Source of the DNA: Escherichia phage L27 | Reading direction: 5' to 3' (one strand) | Sequence record: LC473039.1 | DNA: 64,000 nt | Shown here: in pieces, positions 31,876-62,141 of the stretch | Layout of the letters: each line of letters opens with the position of its first letter | How positions within the stretch are numbered: the stretch's first letter is position 1 | Program-made: the position numbers and the translations under genes | Notes under the pieces: model-generated | Databases searched by the model: none | What the model was told of the DNA's origin: nothing | The model's input: the letters and a program-made list of their open reading frames with translations, nothing else

Positions 31876-31900
31876 TAAAAAAGGCTCCCGAAGGAGCCTA
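31876..31900 (-). terminator. Rho-independent terminator downstream of endolysin (minus strand)
   Basis: GGCTCC-TTCG-GGAGCC hairpin followed by TTTTTTATTTTC on minus strand. Confidence 0.65.
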
Positions 31901-31908
31901 TGAAGATA

Positions 31909-32373
31909 TTACTTTGGATATACGCTGTCAAGATAAATGTCAGCTTCCATTCTACGTCTGTTTTTCAGGCCGTTTGAAGTGACCTTCTTACCTTTGACTG
32001 TAACCTTGTTCCACCACTGCATAGCTTCTGCACAACCGACCTTATTACCATCGTTGTGGCGCTTGATAAATGTAGAGTCCTGCATAGCTGTGATGCCAAT
32101 GTTGTATGTTTCACTTACCAGTGCATCAAACTCATTCTGAGAAGTTGGAACCTTGACGGCTTTGTTCACTGCTGCAACGAACTTCTCAACATCTGCGAGA
32201 AGATACTGTTCAGCTTGTTCAGCGGTAATCTTCATACCCATCTTAACAGGCTTCCCACCAATACGAATTGTCCCATACCCAATTGTGGGGATTCCAGCAG
32301 AATCTTCGTAAGCCTCTAGCTTAAGACCTTCAAAGAACTTAATAGCTTCTAAACCTTTTCTTGAGAGTTGCAT
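31909..32373 (-). CDS. endolysin, GH24 lysozyme (muramidase)
   Basis: N-terminal EGxxLxAYxDxxGxPTIGYG lysozyme signature (FEGLKLEAYEDSAGIPTIGYGT). Confidence 0.75.
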   Translation of the reverse strand: MQLSRKGLEAIKFFEGLKLEAYEDSAGIPTIGYGTIRIGGKPVKMGMKITAEQAEQYLLADVEKFVAAVNKAVKVPTSQNEFDALVSETYNIGITAMQDSTFIKRHNDGNKVGCAEAMQWWNKVTVKGKKVTSNGLKNRRRMEADIYLDSVYPK

Positions 32374-33005
32374 TAGCCCTCCCCTGCTGGGTTAACTGTA
32401 ACTGTTGCTGCATTAGATGTTACAGAACCACCTACACCAGTAACTACACAAGTGTAGCTTCCTGCATCTGCTTGTAGAGCACCAGACTTGCTATAGGTAG
32501 CATTTGTAGCTGAAGGGATGTCAGAGCCATCTTTCTTCCACTGATAACCTGTTGCACCTGTTGCAATAACGCTTAGGGTAAGTGTGCCACCTTCATTTAC
32601 TGTTTGATTGGTTGGTTGCTGGGTGATTACTGGTGGCTTGATAGCATCCTTCAACTTAGCATTCAACATTGAGAATGGTTTAACTCTTGCCAGCCATTCA
32701 CAATAAACTGTATCAACGTCTTTACCATTGATAATTGCATATTGTAAGTCCATGAAGAAGTCAGACGTTCTCATTTGAGCACCAACGCTGTAAAGCAACT
32801 CATCACTAAATGGAACTTTGTAGTCTGGTTTGTAGTCAAACTTCTTAACTTCTGCAATATCAGCTTCAGGCCAATACGAACTATAGGTAAGTGGTAAAAT
32901 AGCCTCTTGATATGTTCTAAAATCATATCTCTTACCAGCCTTTACATTCGCAACGAAGCCCTTCACAAACTCTTTGAAGTCTGGGTAAGTCTTTGCTTTA
33001 ATCAT
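32373..33005 (-). CDS. hypothetical protein with C-terminal Ig-like domain; N-terminal domain paralogous to next gene
   Basis: C-terminal NQTVNEGGTLTLSVIATGATGYQWKK...GSYTCVVTG resembles Ig-like repeat; N-terminal ~110 aa aligns with 33002..33373 product. Confidence 0.55.
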   Translation of the reverse strand: MIKAKTYPDFKEFVKGFVANVKAGKRYDFRTYQEAILPLTYSSYWPEADIAEVKKFDYKPDYKVPFSDELLYSVGAQMRTSDFFMDLQYAIINGKDVDTVYCEWLARVKPFSMLNAKLKDAIKPPVITQQPTNQTVNEGGTLTLSVIATGATGYQWKKDGSDIPSATNATYSKSGALQADAGSYTCVVTGVGGSVTSNAATVTVNPAGEG

Positions 33006-33373
33006 TTCTTTTTAGCCTCTAAATGTGCGTTTAGTCTAAAATAACCTTTGTGATGCGGAGATACATCACCAACAACAATACCTTTAACCTTATAACCTTT
33101 ACCAATTACATACTGGATATCCATAAGGAATCTTCCAAGACCAACAATATGGAACATTGGGTATAATAGATTCTCAGAATCTGGAATATTGATTTCAGGT
33201 TTGTAGGTACACTGTTCGCTTGTTGGTGTAATATCTTCTTCAGGCCATTTGCTGAGTCTCCATGTCAAAGGTGTTGGGATAACATCATTAAGGTTGTACC
33301 TTTCACCATTTTTCACGGAATTGATATAGGATTGTAGGAAGCAATAAAAGTCTTTTGCACTCTTAGCTTTCAT
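33002..33373 (-). CDS. hypothetical protein, paralog of N-terminal domain of 32373..33005
   Basis: Shared blocks KAK..DF...V..G.RY, WPE.DI, YKP.....D.E.LLY, F.MD.QY.I..G, LNA.L. Confidence 0.5.
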   Translation of the reverse strand: MKAKSAKDFYCFLQSYINSVKNGERYNLNDVIPTPLTWRLSKWPEEDITPTSEQCTYKPEINIPDSENLLYPMFHIVGLGRFLMDIQYVIGKGYKVKGIVVGDVSPHHKGYFRLNAHLEAKKK

Positions 33374-33420
33374 TAAATATCCTTATAAATAGTTAAAGGG
33401 GCTGATGCCCCTATCCACAC

Positions 33421-34011
33421 TTAAGCTTTGGTCTTAAGTAGGTTCTTAAGTTTTTTAAGATTCATACTCTCATCAAACTTAAAACCAAATCCATTGACAT
33501 AATCAATGAAATCGGATTTCTTACTGAGTGACAATGCGTAACTCATATCAAAGTTCTTACTTGTTTCTGCGTCTGGACTAGAGTTCACATCAAATGAAAT
33601 TACTGTAGGCTCTTGCTTACTTTTTCTCATATTATCAACCAACAAACATGTATAGTTTGCTGGATAGAAATTTACACTACCGTCAACGTAGCTGTACTTA
33701 TTATTATGGATAAGATTGGAAAATACCTTAAGGAATGTTTCTGAGTCGTGGCAAACAAGTTTGAATTGGCTGCTCTCTCCAAGCGCAACTAATGAGTACG
33801 GACTTTCACTATCGAAGTCATAGTTTGGATTCGATGTCGTCACTGTTACACGCATCAAGTTATTAGCAATAGTCTTCTGTTTAAAGGAATTTGGAACATA
33901 GTGAAGACCTCTATCACACTGATTAACTAATTCTTTCAATAGGTCATTTGCATATGGTGAGTTAATTGATACAGAGCCATCACTATTGTAATTAAAACTT
34001 ACTGTTAACAT
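33421..34011 (-). CDS. hypothetical protein
   Basis: 196 aa ORF. Confidence 0.5.
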   Translation of the reverse strand: MLTVSFNYNSDGSVSINSPYANDLLKELVNQCDRGLHYVPNSFKQKTIANNLMRVTVTTSNPNYDFDSESPYSLVALGESSQFKLVCHDSETFLKVFSNLIHNNKYSYVDGSVNFYPANYTCLLVDNMRKSKQEPTVISFDVNSSPDAETSKNFDMSYALSLSKKSDFIDYVNGFGFKFDESMNLKKLKNLLKTKA

Positions 34012-34630: not shown

Positions 34631-35002
34631 ATGAAAAACAGAACAAACAAAGGCCAGTTTAAAAAAGGCCAGTCTGGAAACCCATCTGGAAGACCAAAAG
34701 GCTCTCGTAACAAAAGCTCACTCGTAAAAGCTCAACTGACCATTGATAATTCTGCTGAGTTCGCTGCAAAGCTGTTTGAGGCGATTGTTACAAGGGACGC
34801 TGCTAAGCTTGCAGAGTTCGGTTTGACGACTGACGATGTAAACCTGAAGTCGATGATGGAAGCTGGTAAAACTATCATGACCCACTCAGCAGGTGAGATG
34901 AAAGCGATTGCAGCAGACACTAAGAAGACCCCTGATAATGGTGGTCAACAACAGACAGATAACAAACCAACGTTCTCTGCTGTAGCGACTCTCAAAAAAT
35001 AA
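34631..35002 (+). CDS. hypothetical protein with basic N-terminal GNPSGRPKG motif
   Basis: 123 aa ORF; RBS AAGAGG. Confidence 0.5.
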   Translation: MKNRTNKGQFKKGQSGNPSGRPKGSRNKSSLVKAQLTIDNSAEFAAKLFEAIVTRDAAKLAEFGLTTDDVNLKSMMEAGKTIMTHSAGEMKAIAADTKKTPDNGGQQQTDNKPTFSAVATLKK

Positions 35003-35082: not shown

Positions 35083-36498
35083 ATGAGCGAGTTATTTAAA
35101 CATGCGCACCTTCATGCAGGTCGAACTGAAAATGGTGCTGTAAACCATACTTCATCAATGTCTGCTCTGGTAGACTTCTACAAAGCCGCTGGCTCAAGCC
35201 GTAGCAATGTAGAAATCTTACCAGACCTGTTCTACAAAGCTTTGCGTGAGGATGTTGATGTTGCAGTTCGTATTTTACTGCATATGCGAGATGTACGAGA
35301 AGGTATGGGTGAGCGTAAAGCTTTCCGAACTGTTTTACTTCAAGCGATTGAAGATAAGGTTTTAGAACCTACACAGGTTCTTCGCATTATGGATAAGATT
35401 GCAGAACTTGGTCGTTTTGATGACTTCAAAATCTTCGTAGGTACTCGTTTCGAGACAGATGCCTTCAAACATTTAGAAGCAGCATTACTAGACCCTGCAA
35501 CAGCAGGTTTAGCAGCTAAGTGGTTGCCACGAGTAAAACCACGCCACAAACAGTTTGTAAAACGTTTCTGTAAGTTTGCAAACTTAAGCGAGAAGGAGTA
35601 TCGCACACTGCTATCTGCACTGTCTGATACGGTTGAGCAAAAAATCTCTGCTAATGAGTTTGGTAAGATTGACTACAGCAAGATTCCTTCACTCGCTGCT
35701 GCACGTTACCAAAAGCTCTTTAACCGTAAAGATGGAGAGCGTTACAAAGCTTACATCGAATCATTATCAAAGGGTGAGGTTAAGATTAATGCTGGTGCTG
35801 TTTACCCATATGATGTGATTAAATCTATTAAGTATGGTAATGCAGATGTTGCTAATGAGCAGTGGAAAGCACTTCCAAACTGGATGGCAGAAGGTGAAAA
35901 CATCTTGTGTATGACTGATGTTTCAAGCTCAATGTCTTGGGTGAATCTTGGTTCAATCACTGCCCTTGATATTGGTGTATCACTTGCCTTGTATGTAGCA
36001 GAACGCAATACAGGTTGCTTTAAAGATGAGTTAATGGTCTATTCAACAAACCCTCATTTCATTGAACTGAGTGGTGATTTACGAAACCGTCATCGTCAGG
36101 TAATGCGTCATGTTGAATATGGTTCAACTAACTTACAAGCAGCTTTTGACCGTATTCTTGAGGTAGGTAAGAGAAACAACTTGACTCAGAAAGATATGCC
36201 AAGTAAGCTTATTATCTTCTCTGATATGGAGTTTAATCAGGTTGATGGTGCAAATGGTCGTACAAACTTTGAAGCAATTCAGAGTAAGTACAAAAAAGCT
36301 GGATACGAAATGCCACAACTAGTATTCTGGTACTTAGCAAACCGTAATGGTACTTGCGAAGTATCTGTTAAGGATAATGGTGTAGCAATGGTATCAGGGT
36401 TCTCTCCAGCCACTTTAAAAGCTCTGCTTGGTGGTGAGAAGTTTGACCCAATCAGTGTAATGCTCAAAGCGGTAATGATTGACCGTTATATCTGGTAA
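35083..36498 (+). CDS. von Willebrand factor A (vWA) domain protein with MIDAS motif; N-terminal domain of unknown family
   Basis: MIDAS D-x-S-x-S in MTDVSSSMSW, downstream TNLQAAFD and IIFSDMEFN; 471 aa. Confidence 0.55.
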   Translation: MSELFKHAHLHAGRTENGAVNHTSSMSALVDFYKAAGSSRSNVEILPDLFYKALREDVDVAVRILLHMRDVREGMGERKAFRTVLLQAIEDKVLEPTQVLRIMDKIAELGRFDDFKIFVGTRFETDAFKHLEAALLDPATAGLAAKWLPRVKPRHKQFVKRFCKFANLSEKEYRTLLSALSDTVEQKISANEFGKIDYSKIPSLAAARYQKLFNRKDGERYKAYIESLSKGEVKINAGAVYPYDVIKSIKYGNADVANEQWKALPNWMAEGENILCMTDVSSSMSWVNLGSITALDIGVSLALYVAERNTGCFKDELMVYSTNPHFIELSGDLRNRHRQVMRHVEYGSTNLQAAFDRILEVGKRNNLTQKDMPSKLIIFSDMEFNQVDGANGRTNFEAIQSKYKKAGYEMPQLVFWYLANRNGTCEVSVKDNGVAMVSGFSPATLKALLGGEKFDPISVMLKAVMIDRYIW

Positions 36499-36663: not shown

Positions 36664-36740
36664 CTCTGTTTAGCTCAGCTTGGTAGAGCGTTCCGTTTGG
36701 GGCGGTAAGGCCGGAGGTTCAAGTCCTCCAACAGAGACCA
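36664..36740 (+). tRNA. tRNA-Pro (anticodon TGG)
   Basis: Manual fold: acceptor CTCTGTT/AACAGAG, D-arm GCTC/GAGC, T-arm GGAGG-TTCAAGT-CCTCC, CCA encoded. Confidence 0.75.
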
Positions 36741-36747
36741 AATTAAT

Positions 36748-36825
36748 GTTCCAGTAGACAAAATGGTATAGTCACCACTCTTTCAAAGTGGATATTTGAG
36801 GGTTCAAATCCCTTCTGGAACGCCA
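36748..36825 (+). tRNA. tRNA-Glu (anticodon TTC)
   Basis: Acceptor GTTCCAG/CTGGAAC, anticodon arm CCACT-CTTTCAA-AGTGG, T-loop TTCAAAT, CCA. Confidence 0.75.
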
Positions 36826-36916
36826 GTTTTGACAGAAGACCAATTACAGCAAACTTAATCTTATTCATCTGAAGGTAAATCGGACAAAGAAGAGACTTGG
36901 TCTGGTCATTAAGAAT

Positions 36917-36993
36917 TGCGGGTATAGAGAAAGGGCGTCTCACATGTCTCATTAGCATGGTATCGGCAGGTTCGACTCCTGCACCCGCCTCCA
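36917..36993 (+). tRNA. tRNA with CAT anticodon (Met / fMet / Ile-lysidine)
   Basis: Anticodon arm CATGT-CTCATTA-GCATG, T-arm GCAGG-TTCGACT-CCTGC; possible 1:72 mismatch; CCA. Confidence 0.65.
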
Positions 36994-37077
36994 AATTTAC
37001 AGAAGACCGTTTACAGCAAAATTGAATGAAATTTTTAGCGGAAAAATTGAAAGATACGGTCTGGTAATACTAAACAT

Positions 37078-37151
37078 GGTTAGGAAGCACATAAGGTATG
37101 TGCGGTCGCCTGTTAAGCGAATGGCACAGGGTTCGAATCCCTGACTAACCG
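37078..37151 (+). tRNA. tRNA-Asn (anticodon GTT)
   Basis: D-arm GCAC/GTGC, anticodon loop CTGTTAA, T-arm CAGGG-TTCGAAT-CCCTG. Confidence 0.7.
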
Positions 37152-37163
37152 CAAAATTTAAAT

Positions 37164-37251
37164 GTGTCGTTATCCCGTAGATGGTAGCGGTGGGGACTGT
37201 AAATCCCTTGTCATTGAGACTCGGTAGGTTCGACTCCTACACGGCACACCA
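37164..37251 (+). tRNA. tRNA-Tyr (anticodon GTA), long variable arm
   Basis: Acceptor GTGTCGT/ACGGCAC, anticodon loop CTGTAAA, T-arm GTAGG-TTCGACT-CCTAC, CCA. Confidence 0.75.
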
Positions 37252-37273
37252 ACACTTAGCGAGATACTTAGTT

Positions 37274-37702
37274 ATGAGAGATGAAGTATACAAATCACAA
37301 CTTGGTATGAGTTTGGGAACTGCACAAAACAGACTAGTAAAAGATTTGCTATTCGATTTTATATGTAAGACAAATCAAAATAGATGTTTTCAGTGCGGAA
37401 AAGAAATGACTAGGGATGATTTCTCTATCGAGCATAAGATTCCGTGGAGACATAGTGAGAATGCAAAAGAGCTTTTCTTTTCACTAGATAATATTTCTTA
37501 TAGTCATCTTAAATGTAACATGAAAGCAGCAAGACCAGCACAGATAAGTGAAAGAAAACATAAAACAATTAAACACGGAACTGCGTATAGTTATTTTAAA
37601 GGCTGTAGATGCGATGAGTGTAGGTTGGCTAAGAATGCTGAGAGTAGAAGAAACTATAGTCCAGAAAGACGTAGGAAGAAGTATCTAAGAAATGGCACAT
37701 GA
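37274..37702 (+). CDS. HNH homing endonuclease (tRNA-cluster embedded)
   Basis: HNH core SIEHKIPW...SHLKCN; C-terminal YFKGCRCDECR; ORF-track start 37181 overlaps tRNA-Tyr, ATG 37274 used. Confidence 0.7.
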   Translation: MRDEVYKSQLGMSLGTAQNRLVKDLLFDFICKTNQNRCFQCGKEMTRDDFSIEHKIPWRHSENAKELFFSLDNISYSHLKCNMKAARPAQISERKHKTIKHGTAYSYFKGCRCDECRLAKNAESRRNYSPERRRKKYLRNGT

Positions 37703-37705
37703 ATT

Positions 37706-37781
37706 TGGGGTATTAGTTTAGACGGGTAAAATACGGGATTGTCTCTCCTGAGCCGCGAGTTCGATTCTCGCATACCTCGCC
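37706..37781 (+). tRNA. tRNA, anticodon GTC (Asp) or TGT (Thr) depending on fold
   Basis: Acceptor GGGGTAT/ATACCTC, T-arm GCGAG-TTCGATT-CTCGC, CCA; anticodon loop ambiguous. Confidence 0.6.
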
Positions 37782-38212
37782 AATTTTGAGAGGGCTATTT
37801 AGCCCCTCCCTTAAAGGGTTCTTACGAGTATCTTTTAAAGGAGCAGAAGACCAAATACAGCAAGAACGTATGAAAATTTCAAGCCAATTTAATTTTGAAA
37901 AATTTAAAACTTGGTCTGGCTCAACAAATTTACAGAAGACCGTTTACAGCAAAACTTAAACAATCTATTTCTCGGTAAAGAAAAGGCGAAGGTTCGATTC
38001 CTTCACTCGGCAGATGTCGAGTTGGTGTAATGGTAGCACTTAAGATGATAAACAACGGTCTGGTAATTATCTTTGTAGATAAGTTATTAAGCTTACCTGT
38101 GAGTATGCGACCACAAAGGGTGAAAGGGTAAATTCTAGATTTAAACCCAACAAGGCACATCGCTACAGACCTTAAGCAAGTCTGGGTAGCTTATCTACAA
38201 AGATAATTTAAT

Positions 38213-38288
38213 GGAAGTGTAGCAGAATGGTGATGCGGTAGACTTTTAATCTGACAGGCGATGGGTTCGAATCCCTCCACTTCTACCA
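38213..38288 (+). tRNA. tRNA-Lys (anticodon TTT), atypical T-stem
   Basis: Acceptor GGAAGTG/CACTTCT, anticodon loop CTTTTAA, T-loop TTCGAAT, CCA. Confidence 0.55.
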
Positions 38289-38292
38289 AAAT

Positions 38293-38369
38293 GGTTCAGT
38301 CGCAGATAAGGTAATGCAAGGGTCTCATAAGCCCTATGAATGTGGGTTCGATTCCCATCTGAACCTCCA
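38293..38369 (+). tRNA. second tRNA with CAT anticodon (Met/Ile2)
   Basis: Acceptor GGTTCAG/CTGAACC, anticodon arm AGGGT-CTCATAA-GCCCT, T-loop TTCGATT, CCA. Confidence 0.7.
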
Positions 38370-38377
38370 ATTTATAG

Positions 38378-38872
38378 GTGATACTTATGATTTGTGCCAA
38401 CAAAGATTGCAGAAATGAAGCCGTTAAAGGTGGAAAATTTTGCTCACGCTCTTGTTCTGCAAAAGTGAACAACAAGAAACACCCAAAGAGAAGTCAGGAA
38501 GGCTCTTGCCATTCATGCGGAAAGGTAACGCCAAAAGCGAGAAAATACTGTGACGAATGTATTGCAGGTGGAGTCATGAAAAAACATAAGACCCATCATG
38601 AAAAAAGCAAAGCCAAATCACTGCACGTTAAAAAGTCTCGTGACAGACTGAAGAAGGCTTTAGTTGATTACAAGGGTGGTTGTTGTTCAATTTGTGGTTA
38701 CAATAGGTGCATAAAGGCTCTAGAGTTTCACCACTTAGACCCTAAGACAAAAGACTTCACAGTAAGTAAAAAACACTACTCACTGGCTACAATGCAGTCT
38801 GAAGTTGATAAGTGTGTCTTGCTTTGTGCAAATTGCCACAGAGAAGTACACGAAGGGGTAACAATGCTGTGA
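38378..38872 (+). CDS. HNH homing endonuclease (zinc-binding)
   Basis: Multiple CxxC pairs and HNH motif EFHHLDPKTKD...CANCHREVH; RBS AGGTGA. Confidence 0.7.
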   Translation: MILMICANKDCRNEAVKGGKFCSRSCSAKVNNKKHPKRSQEGSCHSCGKVTPKARKYCDECIAGGVMKKHKTHHEKSKAKSLHVKKSRDRLKKALVDYKGGCCSICGYNRCIKALEFHHLDPKTKDFTVSKKHYSLATMQSEVDKCVLLCANCHREVHEGVTML

Positions 38873-38941
38873 AAGCACATATGGATGTGCATTCGGCTGA
38901 TAACCGAAAGGCAGAAGGTTCAAATCCTTCTCACAGTACCA
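38866..38941 (+). tRNA. tRNA-Ile (anticodon GAT)
   Basis: Start overlaps HNH stop codon; D-arm GCAC/GTGC, anticodon arm TTCGG-CTGATAA-CCGAA, T-arm GAAGG-TTCAAAT-CCTTC, CCA. Confidence 0.75.
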
Positions 38942-38956
38942 ATTTCAATAAAGTTG

Positions 38957-38985
38957 TTGACATTGAGATGTGACTACTTTATAGT
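38957..38985 (+). promoter_or_regulatory. strong sigma70 consensus promoter (TTGACA-N17-TATAGT) inside tRNA cluster
   Basis: GTTGTTGACATTGAGATGTGACTACTTTATAGTAACC; ~200-nt untranslated leader before next tRNA. Confidence 0.6.
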
Positions 38986-39189
38986 AACCTTAGTTTTCGT
39001 TGCGTAGCGTCTATTTTGCAAATTTAAAATAAATGCAAACGACAATGTTTTTCTGGCAGTAGCTTGATAGGCTAAACACCAGTGAGGTCTTCCAATCCCT
39101 CATCAAAGAATTTGGCGTACTCGCCCACGGTATGATTAATAAGGTGGGCATCTTTAAGGGCTTTCTAAGAGAGTCTTTAAAGATAATTA

Positions 39190-39271
39190 CGGGGCGTATC
39201 TCAGCGGTCTTCTAAACCGCCGTTAACCGAGTAAGTGGAGTATGCGGGTTCGAGTCCTGCCGCCTCGACCA
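39190..39271 (+). tRNA. atypical tRNA-like gene (possible tRNA-Arg, anticodon TCT; D-arm not resolvable)
   Basis: Good acceptor CGGGGCG/CGCCTCG, T-arm GCGGG-TTCGAGT-CCTGC and CCA; perfect stem-loop GCGGT-CTTCTAA-ACCGC but spacing non-canonical. Confidence 0.4.
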
Positions 39272-39414
39272 ATTTAGTTAGCAGATTACTTAGACGACCT
39301 AAGCGGGTCTTCCTGTAGGGAGGTGGTCTGTATCTCATGTTTTCCAGAACATGTAAATAATCTGAGAAGGGGCTTTACAGTGTTGAGATAATACGGTAAG
39401 CTTCGAATTATAGT

Positions 39415-39497
39415 ATGGGACGATGTTAAGACTCTAAGGCATGAGCAACGGCTTCCAACACCGTTTCAAAGGGGTTCAACTCCTCCGTCCCATGCCA
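39415..39497 (+). tRNA. tRNA-Trp (anticodon CCA) candidate with enlarged D region
   Basis: Acceptor ATGGGAC/GTCCCAT perfect, anticodon region ACGG-CTTCCAACA-CCGT resembles Trp arm, T-loop TTCAACT, CCA. Confidence 0.5.
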
Positions 39498-39510
39498 AAG
39501 TCTTATTAGG

Positions 39511-39600
39511 GGTAGGTAGCGGCTAATGGTAGCCAAACAGTCTTGAAAACTGTTGCCACTGTAGAGATACGGTGAGGGTTCGACTCCTTTACTTACCGCC
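39511..39600 (+). tRNA. tRNA-Ser (anticodon TGA), long variable arm
   Basis: Anticodon arm ACAGT-CTTGAAA-ACTGT, variable arm ~20 nt, T-loop TTCGACT. Confidence 0.7.
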
Positions 39601-39854
39601 TAATAAGATTTTACACCGTCCATGCTTGCTCGCATTTTCGGTTTATCCCTCGTGTATTGTCGTACACTGATAAAGCACCTAGTAGGTGTCACGGAGAAGA
39701 GATAATATCAAGCTCTCCAAAGGTTCTAGTCACCGGATTAAACAAGACTATGCAAAGACCAAATTAGGTCTTTTTAGAGGGCTTCTAAGGTTATTACAGC
39801 TTGTTGTGGAACCTTGTTGCTTAGGTTCTTAGAAGTTCTCTAAAAAGATTTAAT

Positions 39855-39932
39855 GGGAGATTGACGGTAATTGGTAAACCTATCTCGCTTAGAACGAGAT
39901 GTTTGAGGGTTCGAATCCCTTGTCTCCTACCA
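39855..39932 (+). tRNA. tRNA with anticodon TAG (Leu) but short variable arm
   Basis: Anticodon arm TCTCG-CTTAGAA-CGAGA, T-arm GAGGG-TTCGAAT-CCCTT, CCA. Confidence 0.55.
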
Positions 39933-39939
39933 AATTAAT

Positions 39940-40015
39940 GCAGGTGTAGCAAAATGGTTATGCGGCTGACTCTTAATCAGTAAGACGATGGGTTCAATTC
40001 CCTCCACCTGTACCA
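39940..40015 (+). tRNA. tRNA-Lys (anticodon CTT), atypical T-stem shared with Lys-TTT
   Basis: Acceptor GCAGGTG/CACCTGT, anticodon arm GCTGA-CTCTTAA-TCAGT, CCA. Confidence 0.55.
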
Positions 40016-40021
40016 GACATT

Positions 40022-40097
40022 GGGGATGTAGTTTACATGGTTAAAACATAAGTTTTGCAAACTTAAGTACAGGGTTCAATTCCCTGCTTCTCCACCA
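40022..40097 (+). tRNA. tRNA-Ala (anticodon TGC)
   Basis: D-arm GTTT/AAAC, anticodon arm TAAGT-TTTGCAA-ACTTA, T-arm CAGGG-TTCAATT-CCCTG, CCA. Confidence 0.65.
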
Positions 40098-40103
40098 ATT
40101 AGT

Positions 40104-40178
40104 GCATCCATAGTTTAAACGGGAAAATTGCAGTCTTCCAAACTGAGGTTGAGGGTTCGATTCCCTCTGGATGCTCCA
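40104..40178 (+). tRNA. tRNA-Gly (anticodon TCC)
   Basis: Acceptor GCATCCA/TGGATGC, anticodon loop CTTCCAA, T-arm GAGGG-TTCGATT-CCCTC, CCA. Confidence 0.7.
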
Positions 40179-40184
40179 AATAAA

Positions 40185-40261
40185 GCTGCTTTCGTATAAT
40201 TGGCTATTACACATCCCTTGTAAGGATGGAAATGCAGGTTCGAGTCCTGTGAGCAGCACCA
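40185..40261 (+). tRNA. tRNA-Thr (anticodon TGT)
   Basis: Anticodon arm CATCC-CTTGTAA-GGATG, T-loop TTCGAGT, CCA. Confidence 0.75.
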
Positions 40262-40356
40262 ATTCAGAGGTCAAGTGAAAGACCGCTGGTGTCAACTGAA
40301 GACCGTAACAAATTCCACGGAGTTGAGTTAGCGGCACAACTTCAGACCTCTTTCAC

Positions 40357-40431
40357 ACTCGCTTAGTTTATATGGTAAAACATCACCCTTACAAGATGAA
40401 GAAAAAGGTTCAAGTCCTTTAGTGAGTACCA
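40357..40431 (+). tRNA. tRNA-Val (anticodon TAC)
   Basis: D-arm GTTT/AAAC, anticodon loop CTTACAA, T-arm AAAGG-TTCAAGT-CCTTT, CCA. Confidence 0.65.
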
Positions 40432-40432
40432 T

Positions 40433-40510
40433 GTTCCAGTATCCCAATTGGCAGAGGATGCAAGCTCAAACCTTGTATTAGTGACGGTTCGAATCCGTCT
40501 TGGAACACCA
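40433..40510 (+). tRNA. tRNA with anticodon CAA (Leu) but short variable arm
   Basis: Acceptor GTTCCAG/TTGGAAC, anticodon arm GCAAG-CTCAAAC-CTTGT, T-arm GACGG-TTCGAAT-CCGTC, CCA. Confidence 0.55.
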
Positions 40511-40529
40511 ATTTTAAGAGGCTATTTAG

Positions 40530-41087
40530 ATGAGATATTTGAAGTATGCTTCATGGATTTTCCTAGCTTTACTAGAGCCATTTGCAGCAACCCTAGCAGT
40601 CATCTTAGCACCTTTCGTAGTCCCATTCTACAGTGAGAAGAAAGGGCATCTACCTTTTGGATTCAGATGGATGGAGACCTATGACAACCCGATTGATGGT
40701 GATGAAGGCCACGTTAAAAGATGGGCTAAGATTAGAAAGATTGGTAAGCTGGGTGTCTACATGCAGAGAGTTGGGTGGCTCTGGAGAAACAAAGCTTATA
40801 ACTTCTCTTACCATGTATTAGGAAGAGATGTAAAAGATGTTACTAAGTGGAAAGGTAATATCAACGTAAGTTCTAACCCTGAAGATAATCAAACAGGTTA
40901 TCTCCTAATGTGGAACAGAAATGCTTGGGGTTTATTTGCTTTTATCCCATCAATTAAAGTCTTTGGTAAACAGTTTTACTGGAGAATTTATATTGGATGG
41001 AAACTAAAAAGTGTTGTCCCAGAAGAAAGAGCATTCTCAAGGGAAAGAGTTATGTTGGCATTCTTTATTCATCCACTGAGAAAGTAA
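40530..41087 (+). CDS. hypothetical membrane protein encoded inside the tRNA cluster
   Basis: 185 aa, N-terminal TM helix, Trp/Arg-rich; no overlap with tRNAs. Confidence 0.45.
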   Translation: MRYLKYASWIFLALLEPFAATLAVILAPFVVPFYSEKKGHLPFGFRWMETYDNPIDGDEGHVKRWAKIRKIGKLGVYMQRVGWLWRNKAYNFSYHVLGRDVKDVTKWKGNINVSSNPEDNQTGYLLMWNRNAWGLFAFIPSIKVFGKQFYWRIYIGWKLKSVVPEERAFSRERVMLAFFIHPLRK

Positions 41088-41095
41088 AGATTTAA

Positions 41096-41171
41096 AGGGG
41101 ATTAGTTTACAAGGTTAAAACCTCGGTCTTTGAAATCGAAGAAGTTGGTTCAATTCCAACATCCCCCGCCA
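41096..41171 (+). tRNA. tRNA-Gln (anticodon TTG)
   Basis: D-arm GTTT/AAAC, anticodon arm TCGGT-CTTTGAA-ATCGA, T-arm GTTGG-TTCAATT-CCAAC, CCA. Confidence 0.65.
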
Positions 41172-41173
41172 AT

Positions 41174-41252
41174 GCTCCATTACTCCAATTGGCAGAGAGG
41201 CCAGACTTAAAATCTGTGTTATGTATCGGTTCGAATCCGATATGGAGTACCA
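41174..41252 (+). tRNA. tRNA with anticodon TAA (Leu), short variable arm
   Basis: Acceptor GCTCCAT/ATGGAGT, anticodon loop CTTAAAA, T-arm ATCGG-TTCGAAT-CCGAT, CCA. Confidence 0.55.
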
Positions 41253-41257
41253 AATTT

Positions 41258-41333
41258 AGCGGTATAGCATAACTGGCAATGCAGCAGTCTCTGAAGCTGT
41301 CCTATTAAGGTTCAAATCCTTATGCCGCTGCCA
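41258..41333 (+). tRNA. tRNA-Gln (anticodon CTG)
   Basis: D-arm GCAT/ATGC, anticodon loop CTCTGAA, T-arm TAAGG-TTCAAAT-CCTTA, CCA. Confidence 0.65.
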
Positions 41334-41364
41334 CTTCTAAGGGTTCTTACGAGAGTCCTTAAAT

Positions 41365-41440
41365 GTGGCCTTATCATAAATGGTAATGACCCATGCTGTG
41401 AACATGGTCTATACGGGTTCAAATCCCGTAGGTCACCCCA
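41365..41440 (+). tRNA. tRNA-His (anticodon GTG)
   Basis: Anticodon arm CCATG-CTGTGAA-CATGG, T-arm ACGGG-TTCAAAT-CCCGT, CCA. Confidence 0.75.
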
Positions 41441-41445
41441 ATTTA

Positions 41446-41521
41446 TAGTCCAAGTAGCTTATATGGTAAAGCGCGTGTCTGAAAAACATGAGAAGAGGGT
41501 TCAAATCCCACTGGACTACCA
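41446..41521 (+). tRNA. tRNA-Phe (anticodon GAA)
   Basis: D-arm GCTT/AAGC, anticodon arm CGTGT-CTGAAAA-ACATG, T-loop TTCAAAT; acceptor pairing imperfect in manual fold. Confidence 0.6.
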
Positions 41522-41537
41522 ATTTCAAAGGTGCTTA

Positions 41538-42272
41538 ATGAAAGAGATGACAGAACAAGGTAAGGAGATTTTTAATCTCTTAAAAACCGGTAAAGGGTTT
41601 TCTAACCCACTTATTACTGGTGCAGCAGTTCTCGGTGGAACCGTAGCTGCCTCTACATCACTTGTAAACTCTATTAGTTCTGTAACAGACCCTACAATGA
41701 AGGATAAACTTGTTGCTGCTGGACTTACAACAGTCCTTCTAAACAGCTTTACAACAAGCCTTACAAGCACTACAGCAACTACTAAGACCCTAACAGACTA
41801 CGGTCAAAAGTCTATTGATGAGTTTTCATCACGTATGCAGGTAGCAAAGGGATACTCCAATGTTATGGGTGCAGCAGGAGAACAAGTTGGTTGTACACCA
41901 TTCAGTGGTATTATGGGTGTTGCTACAGAGTATGGTCAAAAAGCTATTGACACGATTAACAGTACACTGGATAGTGTTAATGATGTGTTAAGTGACTTAC
42001 AAGATGCTATTGATAAGGGTCTTGATACTGTTTCTGATTTAGCTAACCAAGCTGTAAGTAAAATTAATGAAGGTATTTCAAAGATTACAGCTTATGCAGA
42101 TGAAGTTGTGCAGATGATTGAAGAAGAAGCTGCACTTATTGCAGAGTACCTTAAAACGAATATCAATGGGTTCTTAGCAGGTATCTTACCAGACTGGTTT
42201 GATGATGCTTGCAAAACTGGTGTAATTGACACTATTGCAACACCAGAAATGAAGAACGCATTACAGAAATAA
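41538..42272 (+). CDS. hypothetical Ser/Thr-rich protein (possible virion-associated)
   Basis: ATG 41538; ORF-track start 41322 overlaps four tRNAs and is rejected. Confidence 0.5.
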   Translation: MKEMTEQGKEIFNLLKTGKGFSNPLITGAAVLGGTVAASTSLVNSISSVTDPTMKDKLVAAGLTTVLLNSFTTSLTSTTATTKTLTDYGQKSIDEFSSRMQVAKGYSNVMGAAGEQVGCTPFSGIMGVATEYGQKAIDTINSTLDSVNDVLSDLQDAIDKGLDTVSDLANQAVSKINEGISKITAYADEVVQMIEEEAALIAEYLKTNINGFLAGILPDWFDDACKTGVIDTIATPEMKNALQK

Positions 42273-42273
42273 T

Positions 42274-42366
42274 GGAAGATTAACCCTAAAAGGTAAGGGA
42301 GCAGTTTGCTAAACTGCCAGTAGCTGAGAAATCGGTGTACCAGTTCAAGTCTGGTATCTTCCTCCA
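42274..42366 (+). tRNA. tRNA-Ser (anticodon GCT), long variable arm
   Basis: Acceptor GGAAGAT/ATCTTCC perfect, anticodon arm GCAGT-TTGCTAA-ACTGC, T-arm ACCAG-TTCAAGT-CTGGT, CCA. Confidence 0.75.
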
Positions 42367-42370
42367 ATTT

Positions 42371-42446
42371 GAATCCGTGACAGAAATGGCTATGTGCCTG
42401 TCTGCAAAACAGGTTTATAAGGGTTCGAGTCCCTTCGGATTCTCCA
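42371..42446 (+). tRNA. tRNA-Cys (anticodon GCA)
   Basis: Acceptor GAATCCG/CGGATTC perfect, anticodon arm CCTGT-CTGCAAA-ACAGG, T-arm AAGGG-TTCGAGT-CCCTT, CCA. Confidence 0.75.
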
Positions 42447-42870: not shown

Positions 42871-42891
42871 TTCTATTTGCGGAGGCGCTTA

Positions 42892-44493
42892 ATGGACTTA
42901 AATGCTGTTAAGCAGAAGCGAGTGGAAGATGTTAGGAAAGTCCTAGCTGGAGAGTTGGGGCTTTCTGATGAAGTAAAAGAAATTATCAAATCATTCGGTA
43001 AAGACCCCTCTAAATTCCTTCCAACTCAAATTCTGACTTTATTAAGATACACACCAGACCAAGTTAGACTTATCTTCAAATTGATGACTGATAAGAACTA
43101 TGTAGCCCCTCAGCCGGGTTCTCAAGAGGTCTTTTTAAATACTAATGCTGACTTGGTTCTCTATGGTGGTGCTGCTGGTGCTGGTAAAACTGCTGCATTG
43201 TTAATGGACTCTTTAAGATTTATTGAAGACCCTAACTATAATGCTGTATATTTCCGTCGAAATACAACACAGTTACAAGGTGGTTTATGGCCTGCTGCAA
43301 AGAAACTGTTTGGTAAGTTTGGTGGGATTCCTCACGAGCAGAAAATGACTATCACATTCCCTTCTGGGGCAACTATCAAGTTTACCTACCTAGAACTTGA
43401 AAAGCACGCTGAAGGTCATCAGGGTATTGAATACTCAGCTATTTACTTTGACGAAGGTACACACTTCTCTGCTTCACAGATTTCATACCTACAGACTCGT
43501 CTGCGTTCTGGTGCTGAAGGCGACTCATACATGAAGATTTCCATGAACCCAGACAGAGACCACTTTATTTATGATTGGGTAGAGCCATTCTTAGATGAAG
43601 AAGGTTACCCAGACCCTGAGAAGTGTGGTCGTATCCGTTGGTATGTTATGAATGATGGTGTGATGGTTTCTGATTGGGAGAGAGACAAGATTCTTGAAAT
43701 GTTCCCTCTTGAGATTCCTCAAACATACACCTTCATCTCTGGTACGATTGATGATAACCCAATTCTTGACTTCTTAGAGCCAAAGTATCGCGGTAAGCTT
43801 GAAAACAACACTCCTGTAAACGTTGCAAGACTTCGTTTCGGTAACTGGAAGGCTCGTGCAGAAGGTTCAAACTACTGGCAAAGACAATGGTGTGAGATTG
43901 TTGATTCACTCCCAGAAGATGTATTCGATGTTAGAGCATGGGACTTAGCAGCAACTTTACCATCTGAGATTAACCCTAATCCAGACTGGACAGCAGGTGT
44001 TAAGATGGGTAAATCTAAAAAAGACGGTTGCTATTATATCATTGATGTAGTAAGATTTAGAGATAGACCCTCTGGAGTCGAAACACAAATTAATTTGACT
44101 GCTGAAAGTGACGGTAAGCGAACTGGTATTTTTATCCCTCAAGACCCAGGCGCTGCTGGTAAATCCTACGCAACATCCCTCATCAGGAAACTTGCCGAGA
44201 AAGGTTATCGCGCAAGAGCTAAACCAACAAATAAAGATAAAGTTACCCGCTTTGCGGGATTTTCTGCTGCTTCTGAAGCTGGACTTGTAAAAGTCTTGAG
44301 AGGTAGTTGGAATGAAGCTTACTTCCAAGAGCTTGAAGGCTTTTGTGGTGATGGCAAAACTAAAGATGACCAAGTGGATGCTACCAGTGATGCTTTCAAC
44401 AGTCTTAACGAAGTTAAATTATTCAAGCCACCATCAATGGGTGCTCACACAGACTTAGTGAGAGGAAACCCATATGAGGGGCTTAGACGTTGA
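42892..44493 (+). CDS. terminase large subunit
   Basis: Walker A LYGGAAGAGKTAA; ATG 42892 behind GGAGG; ~530 aa; followed by portal-sized gene. Confidence 0.8.
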   Translation: MDLNAVKQKRVEDVRKVLAGELGLSDEVKEIIKSFGKDPSKFLPTQILTLLRYTPDQVRLIFKLMTDKNYVAPQPGSQEVFLNTNADLVLYGGAAGAGKTAALLMDSLRFIEDPNYNAVYFRRNTTQLQGGLWPAAKKLFGKFGGIPHEQKMTITFPSGATIKFTYLELEKHAEGHQGIEYSAIYFDEGTHFSASQISYLQTRLRSGAEGDSYMKISMNPDRDHFIYDWVEPFLDEEGYPDPEKCGRIRWYVMNDGVMVSDWERDKILEMFPLEIPQTYTFISGTIDDNPILDFLEPKYRGKLENNTPVNVARLRFGNWKARAEGSNYWQRQWCEIVDSLPEDVFDVRAWDLAATLPSEINPNPDWTAGVKMGKSKKDGCYYIIDVVRFRDRPSGVETQINLTAESDGKRTGIFIPQDPGAAGKSYATSLIRKLAEKGYRARAKPTNKDKVTRFAGFSAASEAGLVKVLRGSWNEAYFQELEGFCGDGKTKDDQVDATSDAFNSLNEVKLFKPPSMGAHTDLVRGNPYEGLRR

Positions 44494-44509
44494 TAGCTAG
44501 GTGAGAAGA

Positions 44510-54145: not shown

Positions 54146-54146
<1 letters not shown>
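53907..54146 (+). CDS. tail assembly chaperone, second ORF (possible frameshift extension)
   Basis: 79 aa ORF adjacent to previous. Confidence 0.4.

Positions 54147-62141
<7,995 letters not shown>

Follow-up and report, generated by a model that had tools for sequence, protein, structure and literature searches.

A Hoc-like head decoration gene and a probable tandem duplicate of its capsid-binding domain beside the endolysin of Escherichia phage L27

Directly upstream of the endolysin gene of Escherichia phage L27 lie two genes with related products, both of which are labelled 'tail protein' or 'hypothetical' in hundreds of Felix O1-like genomes, including many candidates for therapy or biocontrol. 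What do these two genes encode, and does their position beside a lytic enzyme tie them to lysis? An earlier note on this DNA had read them as tandem paralogues that might serve as a cell-envelope-binding accessory to lysis or as a carbohydrate-binding module. The window analysed here, a stretch of 64,000 nucleotides from record LC473039.1, derives from a Felix O1-like myophage of the genus Felixounavirus and shares 95-96% DNA identity with Felixounavirus genomes. The features concerned are listed below, with CapBD denoting the capsid-binding domain, Hex-Dec the Hoc-like head decoration protein, and MCP the major capsid protein.

31882..31899, minus strand: intrinsic-terminator-like hairpin and T-run, reading AGGCTCCTTCGGGAGCCT then TTTTTATTTT, ending the block after the endolysin
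31909..32373, minus strand: GH24 endolysin (Pfam Phage_lysozyme, E 9e-41; phrog_7), outside the paralogue family
32373..33005, minus strand: long ORF, 210 aa, predicted Hoc-like hexamer-centre decoration protein in a one-Ig form (phrog_3995, E 1.8e-124)
32388..32639, minus strand: single Ig-like (I-set/Ig_3) domain of the long ORF, aa 123-206, by Pfam
32640..33005, minus strand: CapBD of the long ORF, aa 1-122, 98% identical to the Bas63 CapBD in PDB 9NCF
33002..33373, minus strand: short ORF, 123 aa, predicted Ig-less paralogue of the Hex-Dec CapBD (phrog_4463, 'hypothetical protein')
33016..33019, minus strand: GAGG Shine-Dalgarno of the long ORF, inside the 3' end of the short ORF
33380..33384, minus strand: AAGGA ribosome-binding site of the short ORF, between the following hairpin and the ATG
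33398..33411, minus strand: GGGGC-N4-GCCCC hairpin, then TTT, just 5' of the short-ORF ATG (read from the sequence)
48589..49692, plus strand: MCP (phrog_29, major head protein, E 1.6e-74), with Asp at residue 221

The endolysin closes an overlapping block of three genes (short ORF, long ORF, endolysin), in which the TGA of the short ORF overlaps the ATG of the long ORF (ATGA, 33005..33002, as read from the sequence) and, as had been claimed before, the TAA of the long ORF overlaps the ATG of the endolysin (TAATG, 32375..32371). The endolysin keeps its place in this order in every relative examined. The long ORF stands outside the structural module and directly upstream of the endolysin, likewise in Felix O1, Bas63, Sf17, SUSP1, and JH2; in the window some 10 kb separate it from the terminase and 15.6 kb from the MCP gene, which lies on the opposite strand past an array of 24 tRNAs. 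Comparable distances from terminase and MCP were reported for the Hex-Dec gene of Bas63 (PMC12609058).

The tandem paralogy itself was borne out. Both ORFs lie on the minus strand where the earlier note had placed them, and BLASTP aligns 101 aa of their products with an E value of 3e-16, 36% of positions being identical and 54% positive; the Smith-Waterman score of 143 compares with 27.2 +/- 4.9 (maximum 54) in 2000 shuffles, giving z = 23.7. The motifs from which the kinship had been proposed (KAK..DF, WPE.DI, YKP, F.MD.QY.I..G, and LNA.L) all fall within this alignment; the similarity takes in the whole of the short protein, some 120 aa, a little beyond the ~110 aa first suggested. Each protein also matches the PHROG family of the other (phrog_3995 and phrog_4463) at about 1e-16, and the short protein matches the PDB chains 9ncf_S (1.7e-12) and 9c2d_S (1e-11) over residues 3-118. 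These were also the only credible Foldseek matches in the PDB to its AF2 model (TM 0.57, probability 1.0), a model of only moderate quality with a pLDDT of 67; AlphaFold has been reported to mis-model the capsid-binding domain (PMC11821841). No Pfam or NCBIfam family was matched by the short protein, nor were the C-terminal Ig repeats found in it, the chain stopping at residue 123, just past the CapBD; all 51 cluster representatives of this protein span 88-124 aa. On these alignments, the short gene appears to be a tandem duplicate of the CapBD alone, devoid of the Ig display module. It has nevertheless a character of its own: the equivalents of Arg79 and Arg107 of the long protein are missing, all members of the paralogue family having Gly78 and His/Gln107 in their place with only Lys109 shared, and the conserved motifs FYCFLQSY, PMFHIVGLG, and HKGYFRLNA are distinct from those of Hex-Dec. 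A Cys/His metal site (C11, H75, and H108, conserved in close relatives) was considered and rejected, since the divergent paralogue P0098 has kept neither H75 nor H108.

The long protein, for its part, is the orthologue of Bas63 Hex-Dec, Sf14 gp20, and Felix O1 gp36. A phmmer comparison with PDB sequences returned 9ncf_S (E 1.5e-224) and 9c2d_S (E 4.6e-157), both aligned from residue 1, and the CapBD shares ~90% identity with its counterpart in Sf14 gp20. Cryo-EM placed both Bas63 Hex-Dec (PMC12609058) and Sf14 gp20 (PMC11821841) on capsid hexamers with a CapBD and Ig architecture, while purified Felix O1 virions were demonstrated to contain gp36 (Mascot 813, 44% coverage), the product of ORF36, which adjoins the lysin gene. 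In Sf14, Arg79 and Arg107 of gp20 form salt bridges to Asp221 of the MCP gp34 (PMC11821841); both arginines are present in the L27 long protein and Asp221 in the window MCP, its presumptive binding partner. Given a CapBD with 98% identity to its Bas63 counterpart, the long protein of L27 is expected to occupy capsid hexamers, as demonstrated in the orthologues. One Hex-Dec monomer would plug its N-terminal ~120-aa CapBD into the acidic centre of each occupied hexamer, those occupied in the T=9 capsid being the 60 that are pentamer-proximal. MCP Asp221 would be paired with Arg79 and Arg107, and the single C-terminal Ig-like domain would point outward; the analogy with T4 Hoc makes a role for it in weak adhesion or aggregation probable. 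The idea that the pseudo-C2 lobes reported for the CapBD stem from an internal duplication was rejected, the comparison of N and C halves by hhalign being not significant (E 0.18). Taken jointly, the reading of the long gene as the Hex-Dec decoration protein and the short gene as its CapBD-only tandem duplicate is assigned a probability of about 0.8. What the long gene encodes has already been described in Felix O1-type phages as their Hoc-like head decoration protein; the newness of the locus is limited to the anchor-only duplicate, the remainder being explained by the cryo-EM work of 2025.

The Ig-like domain that had been noticed at the C-terminus of the longer copy was recovered by Pfam as Ig_3 (E 2.5e-11, aa 124-189), I-set (2.2e-8), and Ig_2 (1.3e-7), all exceeding their gathering scores. 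Although single, this domain can be aligned with all four repeats of Bas63, and its DNA is a mosaic of them, with the 5' part from Ig1, the middle from Ig2, and the 3' part from Ig4 together with the NPAGE tail (sliding-window identity 29/30 to Ig1, then 28/30 to Ig2, then 28/30 to Ig4). Orthologues at the same position measure 210 aa in Meda and JH2, 294 aa in VpaE1 and Felix O1, 377 aa in Alf5, and 460 aa in Bas63, these copy numbers being taken from annotated relatives and match spans, as the homologue search with the CapBD gave almost only 210-aa forms. The number of Ig repeats (1-4 in relatives) would shift by recombination between repeats. The variation from one to four repeats is already published, and one-Ig forms were predicted in the Bas63 paper (PMC12609058).

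Could the pair still act in lysis, binding the cell envelope alongside the adjacent endolysin? The stop/start overlap with the endolysin, the adjacency of the genes in all relatives including phiEa21-4, and the capacity for carbohydrate binding that Ig-like domains may possess speak for it. Cryo-EM and virion mass spectrometry, however, identify the orthologues as capsid proteins; transcripts of Felix O1 ORF36 and ORF37 (the short-ORF orthologue) reach their maximum at 60 min alongside the portal and sheath genes, whereas the maximum for the lysin ORF35 comes at 25 min; a terminator is annotated in phiEa21-4 between the CapBD gene and the endolysin; and Bas63 g124 is non-essential save for a host-specific fitness effect. 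Neither protein carries a transmembrane or signal-like segment, the maximum Kyte-Doolittle values over 19 residues being 1.14 and 1.17 against a usual cutoff of 1.6, and neither has a match in a lysis-category PHROG or Pfam family. A lysis accessory is hence very improbable, and the proximity of the long gene to the endolysin is ascribed to the conserved synteny of the gene block instead of a lysis cassette. The suggestion of a carbohydrate-binding module survives only loosely, in that weak adhesion through the exposed Ig domain, to surfaces or glycans, has been proposed in the literature by T4 Hoc analogy; this would take place from the virion head and not in lysis. Less credible still is the reading of both genes as tail proteins, which follows the GenBank and PHROG label: phrog_3995 bears the label 'tail protein', Felix O1 gp36 has been called 'major tail protein', and many records do likewise. 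Matches to major-tail-protein PHROGs are nonetheless confined to the Ig region (aa 96-210), the CapBD matches only chains from capsid maps (9NCF and 9C2D), and the label is attributable to Ig similarity with Ig-bearing tail-tube proteins; the Bas63 structure paper corrects it as a misannotation (PMC12609058).

The junctions of the block carry conserved signals. The GAGG Shine-Dalgarno is conserved at all junctions compared and is preserved even in the pseudogene remnant of SP116, REP12, and CECAV_041. Ahead of the short ORF, the GGGGC-N4-GCCCC stem is invariant and its loop variable (Meda, VpaE1, Alf5, Felix O1, JH2, Sf17, and SUSP1), and the hairpin is still present in the lineage with a short-ORF pseudogene; it is a candidate attenuator, terminator, or processing site. 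At the other end, a terminator is annotated in phage Meda at the site equivalent to the post-endolysin hairpin. Matches resembling sigma-70 promoters were rarer in the region than in shuffles (5 versus 9.6), and therefore no promoter is claimed. A programmed -1 frameshift joining the short ORF to Hex-Dec was contemplated at GCT AAA AAG AAA TGA, where Hex-Dec is read in the -1 frame, and rejected: the A-rich motif is missing in Sf17 (GCTAAGAAATGA), SUSP1, and an 87-kb metagenomic phage, while the gene overlap itself is conserved, so that ordinary translational coupling suffices. Also dismissed was a T4 Inh-like head protein in the upstream 196-aa ORF (33421..34011), a reading prompted by a distant homologue that carried a 'faint' Phage_Inh_N flag; no such Pfam match was found in five homologues scanned at E <= 10.

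The short gene is widely kept. It accompanies the long gene in 232 of 252 matching phage records from three genera (Felixounavirus, Mooglevirus, and Suspvirus), and the pair also occurs in the divergent 87-kb metagenomic phage, but the short gene is absent from Kolesnikvirus. The intact ORF measures 122-124 aa in the three genera and in the metagenomic lineage, which is ~50% divergent; its orthologues include Felix O1 ORF37 (NP_944851), bas63_0125, and VpaE1 gp040. Single-copy CapBD relatives (phiEa21-4 and metagenomic lineages) lie between the same flanking genes and lack the duplicate, and the duplication would have arisen once the Kolesnikvirus lineage had split off. Across eight genomes, the dN/dS of the short gene is 0.11-0.13, with dS up to 1.5, which is 2-3 times the value for the Hex-Dec CapBD (0.04-0.05); the short gene is held under purifying selection. 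In about 19-20 of the 252 records it is a pseudogene, as in SP116, REP12, and CECAV_041, a single lineage with isolates from three continents, and it is therefore dispensable. In one further record it is swapped for a chimera: in phage SP3_SHan-2021, the first 48 residues of the paralogue form the N-terminus of a Hex-Dec, suggesting that the N-terminal part is still interchangeable.

Evidence for the short protein in the virion can be sought in published lists and maps. The virion protein list of Felix O1 does not include the ORF37 product; this list was restricted to proteins with at least 25% coverage, which makes its silence weak evidence in either direction. The orthologue does not figure in VpaE1's set of virion proteins as far as the main text of that report conveys, nor does it appear in the structural table of Sf14 (PMC11821841). 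In this set of lists, by contrast, the 9.7-kDa gp23 was detected. No density was seen on the unoccupied three-fold hexamers of Bas63 (PMC12609058) or Sf14 (PMC11821841), and the short gene goes unmentioned in both cryo-EM papers. The pI of the short protein is 9.0, a basic value compatible with the Asp-lined hexamer centre. Points against capsid binding by this protein are the lost anchor arginines, the virion lists and maps without it, and the pseudogene lineage.

What, then, would the duplicate do? We tentatively favour, at somewhat less than even odds, a short protein that still recognises capsid hexamers and acts as a transient or sub-stoichiometric ligand at the assembly stage, not as a stable component of the virion; it may, for example, occupy or mask hexamer centres or modulate the loading of Hex-Dec. 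A bolder form of this proposal, in which it would be a dedicated hexamer ligand setting where or when the Hoc-like protein binds, or would mask capsomer centres from host sensors, is doubtful. Were it true, occupancy of the prohead or of the 20 three-fold hexamers by the short protein would explain the 60/80 pattern, and the short protein, a decoration-protein paralogue serving as 'placeholder or decoy', would have a role undescribed in any phage. Similarly rather unlikely is a second, Ig-less decoration protein in the virion, seated on the 20 facet-centre (three-fold) hexamers or sharing the edge hexamers sub-stoichiometrically. It would accord with the full-length CapBD fold and its two retained lobes, the late expression with Hex-Dec, the basic pI, and the purifying selection; the altered contact residues could fit the differently oriented Asp221 ring of the three-fold hexamers (Sf14, PMC11821841), and icosahedral averaging would smear a monomer on a three-fold axis. 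Against it stand the empty three-fold hexamers of both maps, the silence of the Felix O1, VpaE1, and Sf14 lists despite the detection of so small a protein as gp23, and the loss of the gene in a viable lineage.

A function off the capsid, in host interaction, anti-defence, or the folding and loading of Hex-Dec as a chaperone with the ancestral fold kept, is a possibility to which we grant a minor share. The loss of both capsid-contact arginines, the motifs peculiar to the paralogue, its higher dN/dS, and its absence from virion lists would suit such neofunctionalisation, and neighbours in the Bas63 block do meet defence systems, g123 triggering retron Ec67 and gp130 countering ppl. The tight translational coupling, late co-transcription, and strict co-occurrence with Hex-Dec point instead to a related role; the SP3_SHan-2021 chimera, with its paralogue-derived N-terminus on a Hex-Dec, also weighs against this reading, and the PHROG class of the short protein is 'unknown'. 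That the short ORF is merely a decaying remnant without function is highly unlikely: the pseudogene records and the chimera replacement would favour it, but its constant length over three genera and the divergent lineage, a dN/dS of ~0.12, and late transcription in Felix O1 run counter to decay. The assembly-stage ligand is retained as the tentative proposal, and the role of the anchor-only duplicate may bear on the selective occupancy of edge hexamers. For this question, the SP116 clade offers natural knock-outs and SP3_SHan-2021 a natural chimera. In annotation, the proper labels would be 'Hoc-like head decoration protein' for the long gene and its 'capsid-binding-domain paralogue' for the short. 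As the CapBD bears one to four I-set repeats, Big_2, a Lys/Ser-rich tail, or nothing, it constitutes a natural display scaffold for T=9 heads.

Among known systems, the closest are Bas63 Hex-Dec (bas63_0124; 9NCF chain S), Sf14 gp20 (9C2D/9C3A chain S), and Felix O1 gp36, which share with the long protein the same CapBD, the contact arginines, I-set repeats, and a gene position between the paralogue and the endolysin. They differ in carrying four (Bas63), three (Sf14), or two (Felix O1) Ig repeats where the long protein of L27 has a single mosaic one, whereas the short protein is homologous to them over the CapBD only, without the Ig repeats and the two arginines. T4 Hoc is alike in being a non-essential monomer at the hexamer centre with a small anchor and a string of Ig domains, and in its proposed role in adhesion or environment sensing (PMC12609058, PMC11821841). 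Its anchor, however, is C-terminal and that of the long protein N-terminal, and the anchor fold is topologically distinct from that of Hoc, sequence similarity being limited to the Ig part (PMC12609058). The PHROGs for T4 Hoc-like head decoration match only the Ig region of the long protein (aa 126-210), and no Hoc chain was matched when its CapBD was compared with PDB sequences. T4 Hoc is thus an analogue of the long protein and not a member of its family. T5 pb10 (PDB 5LXK and 8ZVI) shows Ig similarity to the long protein (E 1.8e-13 and 4.5e-13), but the match is limited to aa 131-207 against residues 80-160 of 8zvi_a; its capsid-binding domain has no sequence similarity, and pb10 is not among the Foldseek matches of the short-protein model. 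Last but not least, Kolesnikvirus phiEa21-4 gp38, the BIG2 protein of phiEa104, and the metagenomic P0100-P0104 possess a homologous CapBD (profile E 9e-11 to 9e-5; Foldseek TM 0.50). Their display module is Big_2, another Ig type, or a Lys/Ser-rich tail in place of I-set repeats, and their CapBD gene is single, without a tandem Ig-less paralogue, yet phiEa21-4 and the metagenomic relatives keep the same synteny: a homologue of the 196-aa protein, the CapBD gene, and the endolysin.

The two genes beside the endolysin lie on the minus strand, as ORFs at the positions given in the earlier note:

33421..34011, minus strand: 196-aa ORF (phrog_4034, unknown function; Felix O1 ORF38), directly upstream of the short gene
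33398..33411, minus strand: GGGGC-N4-GCCCC hairpin followed by TTT, just upstream of the short gene
33002..33373, minus strand: short gene, 123 aa
32373..33005, minus strand: long gene, 210 aa
31909..32373, minus strand: endolysin, 154 aa (Pfam Phage_lysozyme, E 9e-41)
31882..31899, minus strand: strong terminator-like hairpin, 3' of the endolysin

Read from the sequence, the short and long genes overlap in ATGA (33005..33002), with the SD of the long gene (GAGG) located within the 3' end of the short one, and the stop of the long gene does overlap the endolysin start as proposed, in TAATG (32375..32371). No promoter is claimed for the block. The stem of the GGGGC/GCCCC hairpin is invariant across genera and its loop variable; immediately preceding it, a perfect inverted repeat (ACTTAAG-N7-CTTAAGT, 33419..33439, minus strand) runs across the 196-aa ORF's stop codon and is kept in Felixouna-, Moogle-, and Suspvirus relatives. 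One distant homologue of the 196-aa ORF had drawn a "faint" Phage_Inh_N flag, which Pfam scans did not reproduce.

The relatedness of the two products was upheld, and every shared motif quoted in the earlier note was found. Their N-terminal regions align significantly by BLASTP (36% identity across 101 residues, E 3e-16), in Smith-Waterman alignment they score 143, which is 23.7 SD above 2000 shuffles (shuffle maximum 54), and each protein matches the PHROG family of the other at ~1e-16. The Ig-like domain ascribed to the longer copy is likewise genuine, being a single domain at aa 123-206 matched by Ig_3 (2.5e-11), I-set (2.2e-8), and Ig_2 (1.3e-7), each above the gathering threshold.

A PDB sequence search identified the long protein as an orthologue of a capsid decoration protein, with alignments beginning at its residue 1 to both 9ncf_S ("Immunoglobulin-like domain protein", 460 aa, E 1.5e-224), from the Bas63 capsid reconstruction, and 9c2d_S/9c3a ("tail protein", 372 aa, E 4.6e-157), from that of Sf14; its one Ig domain matches every repeat of 9ncf_S (four) and 9c2d_S (three). 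The Bas63 protein, named Hex-Dec, sits as a monomer in the centres of facet-edge hexamers only, and consists of a capsid-binding domain (CapBD) and, after it, Ig-like repeats that were not resolved in the map (PMC12609058). Sf14 gp20 has the same arrangement, its Arg79 and Arg107 forming salt bridges to Asp221 of three major capsid protein (MCP) subunits (PMC11821841); all three residues are present in the window, R79 and R107 in the long protein and D221 in the MCP. The Felix O1 orthologue, ORF36, adjoins the lysin ORF35, and purified virions contained its 31.6-kDa product (Mascot 813, 44% coverage). The propagated "tail protein" label arose because this product was then called "major tail protein"; the tail-component label of most Felixounavirus genomes is incorrect for Hex-Dec (PMC12609058). 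In PhageMaP, the Bas63 orthologue bas63_0124 was non-essential, yet more important on strain S17-1. The suggestion that the pair might be an envelope-binding accessory to lysis was not borne out: the long gene encodes a capsid decoration protein orthologue, and neither protein contains a transmembrane-like segment, so that a lysis-accessory reading is unsupported. The proximity of the long gene to the endolysin is conserved synteny.

At 93-96% identity, a 3-kb stretch around the locus matches >200 genomes of Felixounavirus, the Felix O1-like myophages, with Escherichia, Salmonella, Shigella, and Citrobacter as hosts. The Hex-Dec gene is reported to lie >10 kb outside the structural module (PMC12609058), which in the window begins ~10 kb from the locus on the opposite strand:

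36664..42446, plus strand: 24-tRNA array between the decoration/endolysin block and terminase
42877..44493, strand opposite to the locus: terminase
44501..45976, strand opposite to the locus: portal
48589..49692, strand opposite to the locus: MCP
51618..52970, strand opposite to the locus: sheath
54146..56353, strand opposite to the locus: tape measure

The array includes tRNA-Met (two), tRNA-Leu (three), tRNA-Lys (two), tRNA-Gln (two), and tRNA-Ser (two), and a 308-aa ORF antisense inside the MCP gene (48697..49623, minus strand) is most likely a mechanical ORF and not a gene. Just upstream of the array and divergent from the block are genes for a DUF5681 protein (34631..35002, plus strand) and a DUF2828 "RNA-binding protein" (phrog_850; 35083..36498, plus strand), the Bas63 orthologue of the latter, bas63_0130, being reported to counter the ppl defence system. 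The Bas63 orthologue of the endolysin is g123, which according to the PhageMaP preprint triggers the Ec67 retron, is toxic only with the retron present, and is more dispensable under several defence systems. The window also encodes a nicotinamide phosphoribosyltransferase of NAD salvage (9408..11189, plus strand) and a RIIA-like protein (11765..14131, plus strand). In Bas63, two genes of NAD+ biosynthesis, g79 and g80, are reported by PhageMaP to counter Sir2-HerA.

Ig repeats are predicted to number one to four depending on the species (PMC12609058), and orthologues at the same position measure 210 aa (Meda, JH2), 294 aa (VpaE1, Felix O1, Sf17, SUSP1), 377 aa (Alf5), and 460 aa (Bas63), a length variation repeated in the megablast spans of close relatives (~3000, 3250, and 3500 bp). 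Aligned as DNA with the four Bas63 repeats, the window repeat (32388..32639, minus strand) is a mosaic: its 5' third is Ig1-like (29/30 identity), its middle Ig2-like (28/30), and its 3' third with the NPAGE tail Ig4-like (28/30). This implies that the one-Ig form is the contraction product of a multi-repeat ancestor through recombination between repeats, which extends the published observation on repeat number and is not new in kind. Among the more distant metagenomic members P0100-P0104, all single genes, the CapBD is fused to Big_2, another Ig type, or a low-complexity Lys/Ser-rich tail. The distant single-copy proteins (L012, L013, L016, L018, and L025; metagenomic contigs and phiEa21-4) keep the anchor domain and exchange the display module.

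The short gene corresponds to Felix O1 ORF37 (NP_944851), bas63_0125, and VpaE1 gp040, is annotated "hypothetical" almost everywhere, and belongs to phrog_4463 of unknown function. The PDB contains no relatives of its product other than the CapBDs of 9ncf_S (1.7e-12) and 9c2d_S (1e-11), over residues 3-118. An AlphaFold2 model of moderate confidence built from 20 sequences (pLDDT 67, pTM 0.66) retrieved the same two chains alone from the PDB with Foldseek (prob 1.0, TM 0.57; next match E > 2) and, from BFVD, its own orthologue (TM 0.70), the Sf16 Hex-Dec (0.66), and the phiEa104 BIG2 protein (0.50).

In tblastn, the short protein matched 252 phage records covering Felixounavirus, Mooglevirus, and Suspvirus; 232 carry a full-length copy, nearly all with two matching places (paralogue and Hex-Dec), and an intact paralogue is missing in about 19-20. 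A Felix O1-type locus (97.6% protein identity) occurs at 143190-143558 of GU169904.1, the 147-kb Staphylococcus phage SA1 record, whose assembly is probably mixed or contaminated. Searched against 1.84 billion representative proteins, a profile made from both paralogue groups recovers 12 clusters, so the family is tiny. One of these, P0098, is a divergent Ig-less copy of 122 aa on an 87-kb metagenomic contig, where a 298-aa Hex-Dec (P0099) and lysozyme follow it immediately downstream, so that the three-gene set predates the three named genera. P0100-P0104 lie between a homologue of the 196-aa ORF and lysozyme with no tandem duplicate, and Erwinia phage phiEa21-4 (Kolesnikvirus), whose genome is complete, has the order gp39, gp38 (CapBD and Big_2), gp37 endolysin. 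It is most parsimonious that the tandem duplication postdates the Kolesnikvirus split, though the paralogue may instead have been lost in Kolesnikvirus. In every lineage, Kolesnikvirus included, the 196-aa ORF keeps its synteny with the CapBD gene.

dN/dS (Nei-Gojobori, eight genomes)
Paralogue: 0.11-0.13
Hex-Dec CapBD: 0.04-0.05
First Ig repeat: 0.12-0.14
Endolysin: 0.07-0.08

That the short gene is a functionless remnant is highly improbable, its dN/dS marking it as a real, constrained gene. It is dispensable, given a pseudogene common to SP116 (China; L005 2305-2498), REP12 (USA; L023 505-698), and vB_CECAV_041 (Spain; L024 512-698), in which the ATG is lost together with ~190 nt internally, and the upstream hairpin and Hex-Dec SD are kept. 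In Salmonella phage SP3_SHan-2021 (MW296865; L004 2501-3379), one 292-aa gene replaces the pair, with residues 1-48 of paralogue type and those from 49 onward of Hex-Dec type with two Ig repeats, joined at the shared WPE.DI motif, which makes it a natural recombinant of the paralogous genes, unless it results from misassembly.

Tentatively, with a probability of roughly one in three, the short protein would act as a transient or sub-stoichiometric hexamer ligand during head assembly. A capsid-related role is favoured by the retention of the entire CapBD, a basic pI of 9.0, the SP3_SHan-2021 fusion, and the translational coupling and late co-transcription with Hex-Dec: by RT-PCR in Felix O1, ORF36 and ORF37 are maximal at 60 min alongside the portal and sheath genes, the lysin ORF35 and ORF38 peaking at 25 min. 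The coupling, the co-transcription, and the fusion weigh against a neofunctionalised non-capsid protein, a somewhat less probable alternative. The retained CapBD, the late transcription, and the basic pI would suit a minor decoration protein, which is unlikely on the evidence that speaks against a stable place in the virion: the paralogue family has Gly and His/Gln where Hex-Dec has Arg79 and Arg107, the protein is missing from the Felix O1 virion list (which holds only proteins of at least 25% coverage) and, as far as the main text of that study indicates, from that of VpaE1, and the three-fold hexamers are empty in both cryo-EM studies (PMC12609058, PMC11821841).

Neither structure paper mentions the paralogue (PMC12609058, PMC11821841), and a full-text search returned no further relevant papers on Hex-Dec; the identity of this "hypothetical" gene as an anchor-only paralogue, with its history, is absent from the literature searched, and constitutes a modest, testable addition rather than a new kind of system. 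The long gene encodes an already-characterised Hoc-like head decoration protein, working like T4 Hoc but not a member of its family, since its anchor, placed at the opposite end, is unrelated in sequence to that of Hoc; nearest in architecture is T5 pb10, the similarity being confined to the Ig parts.
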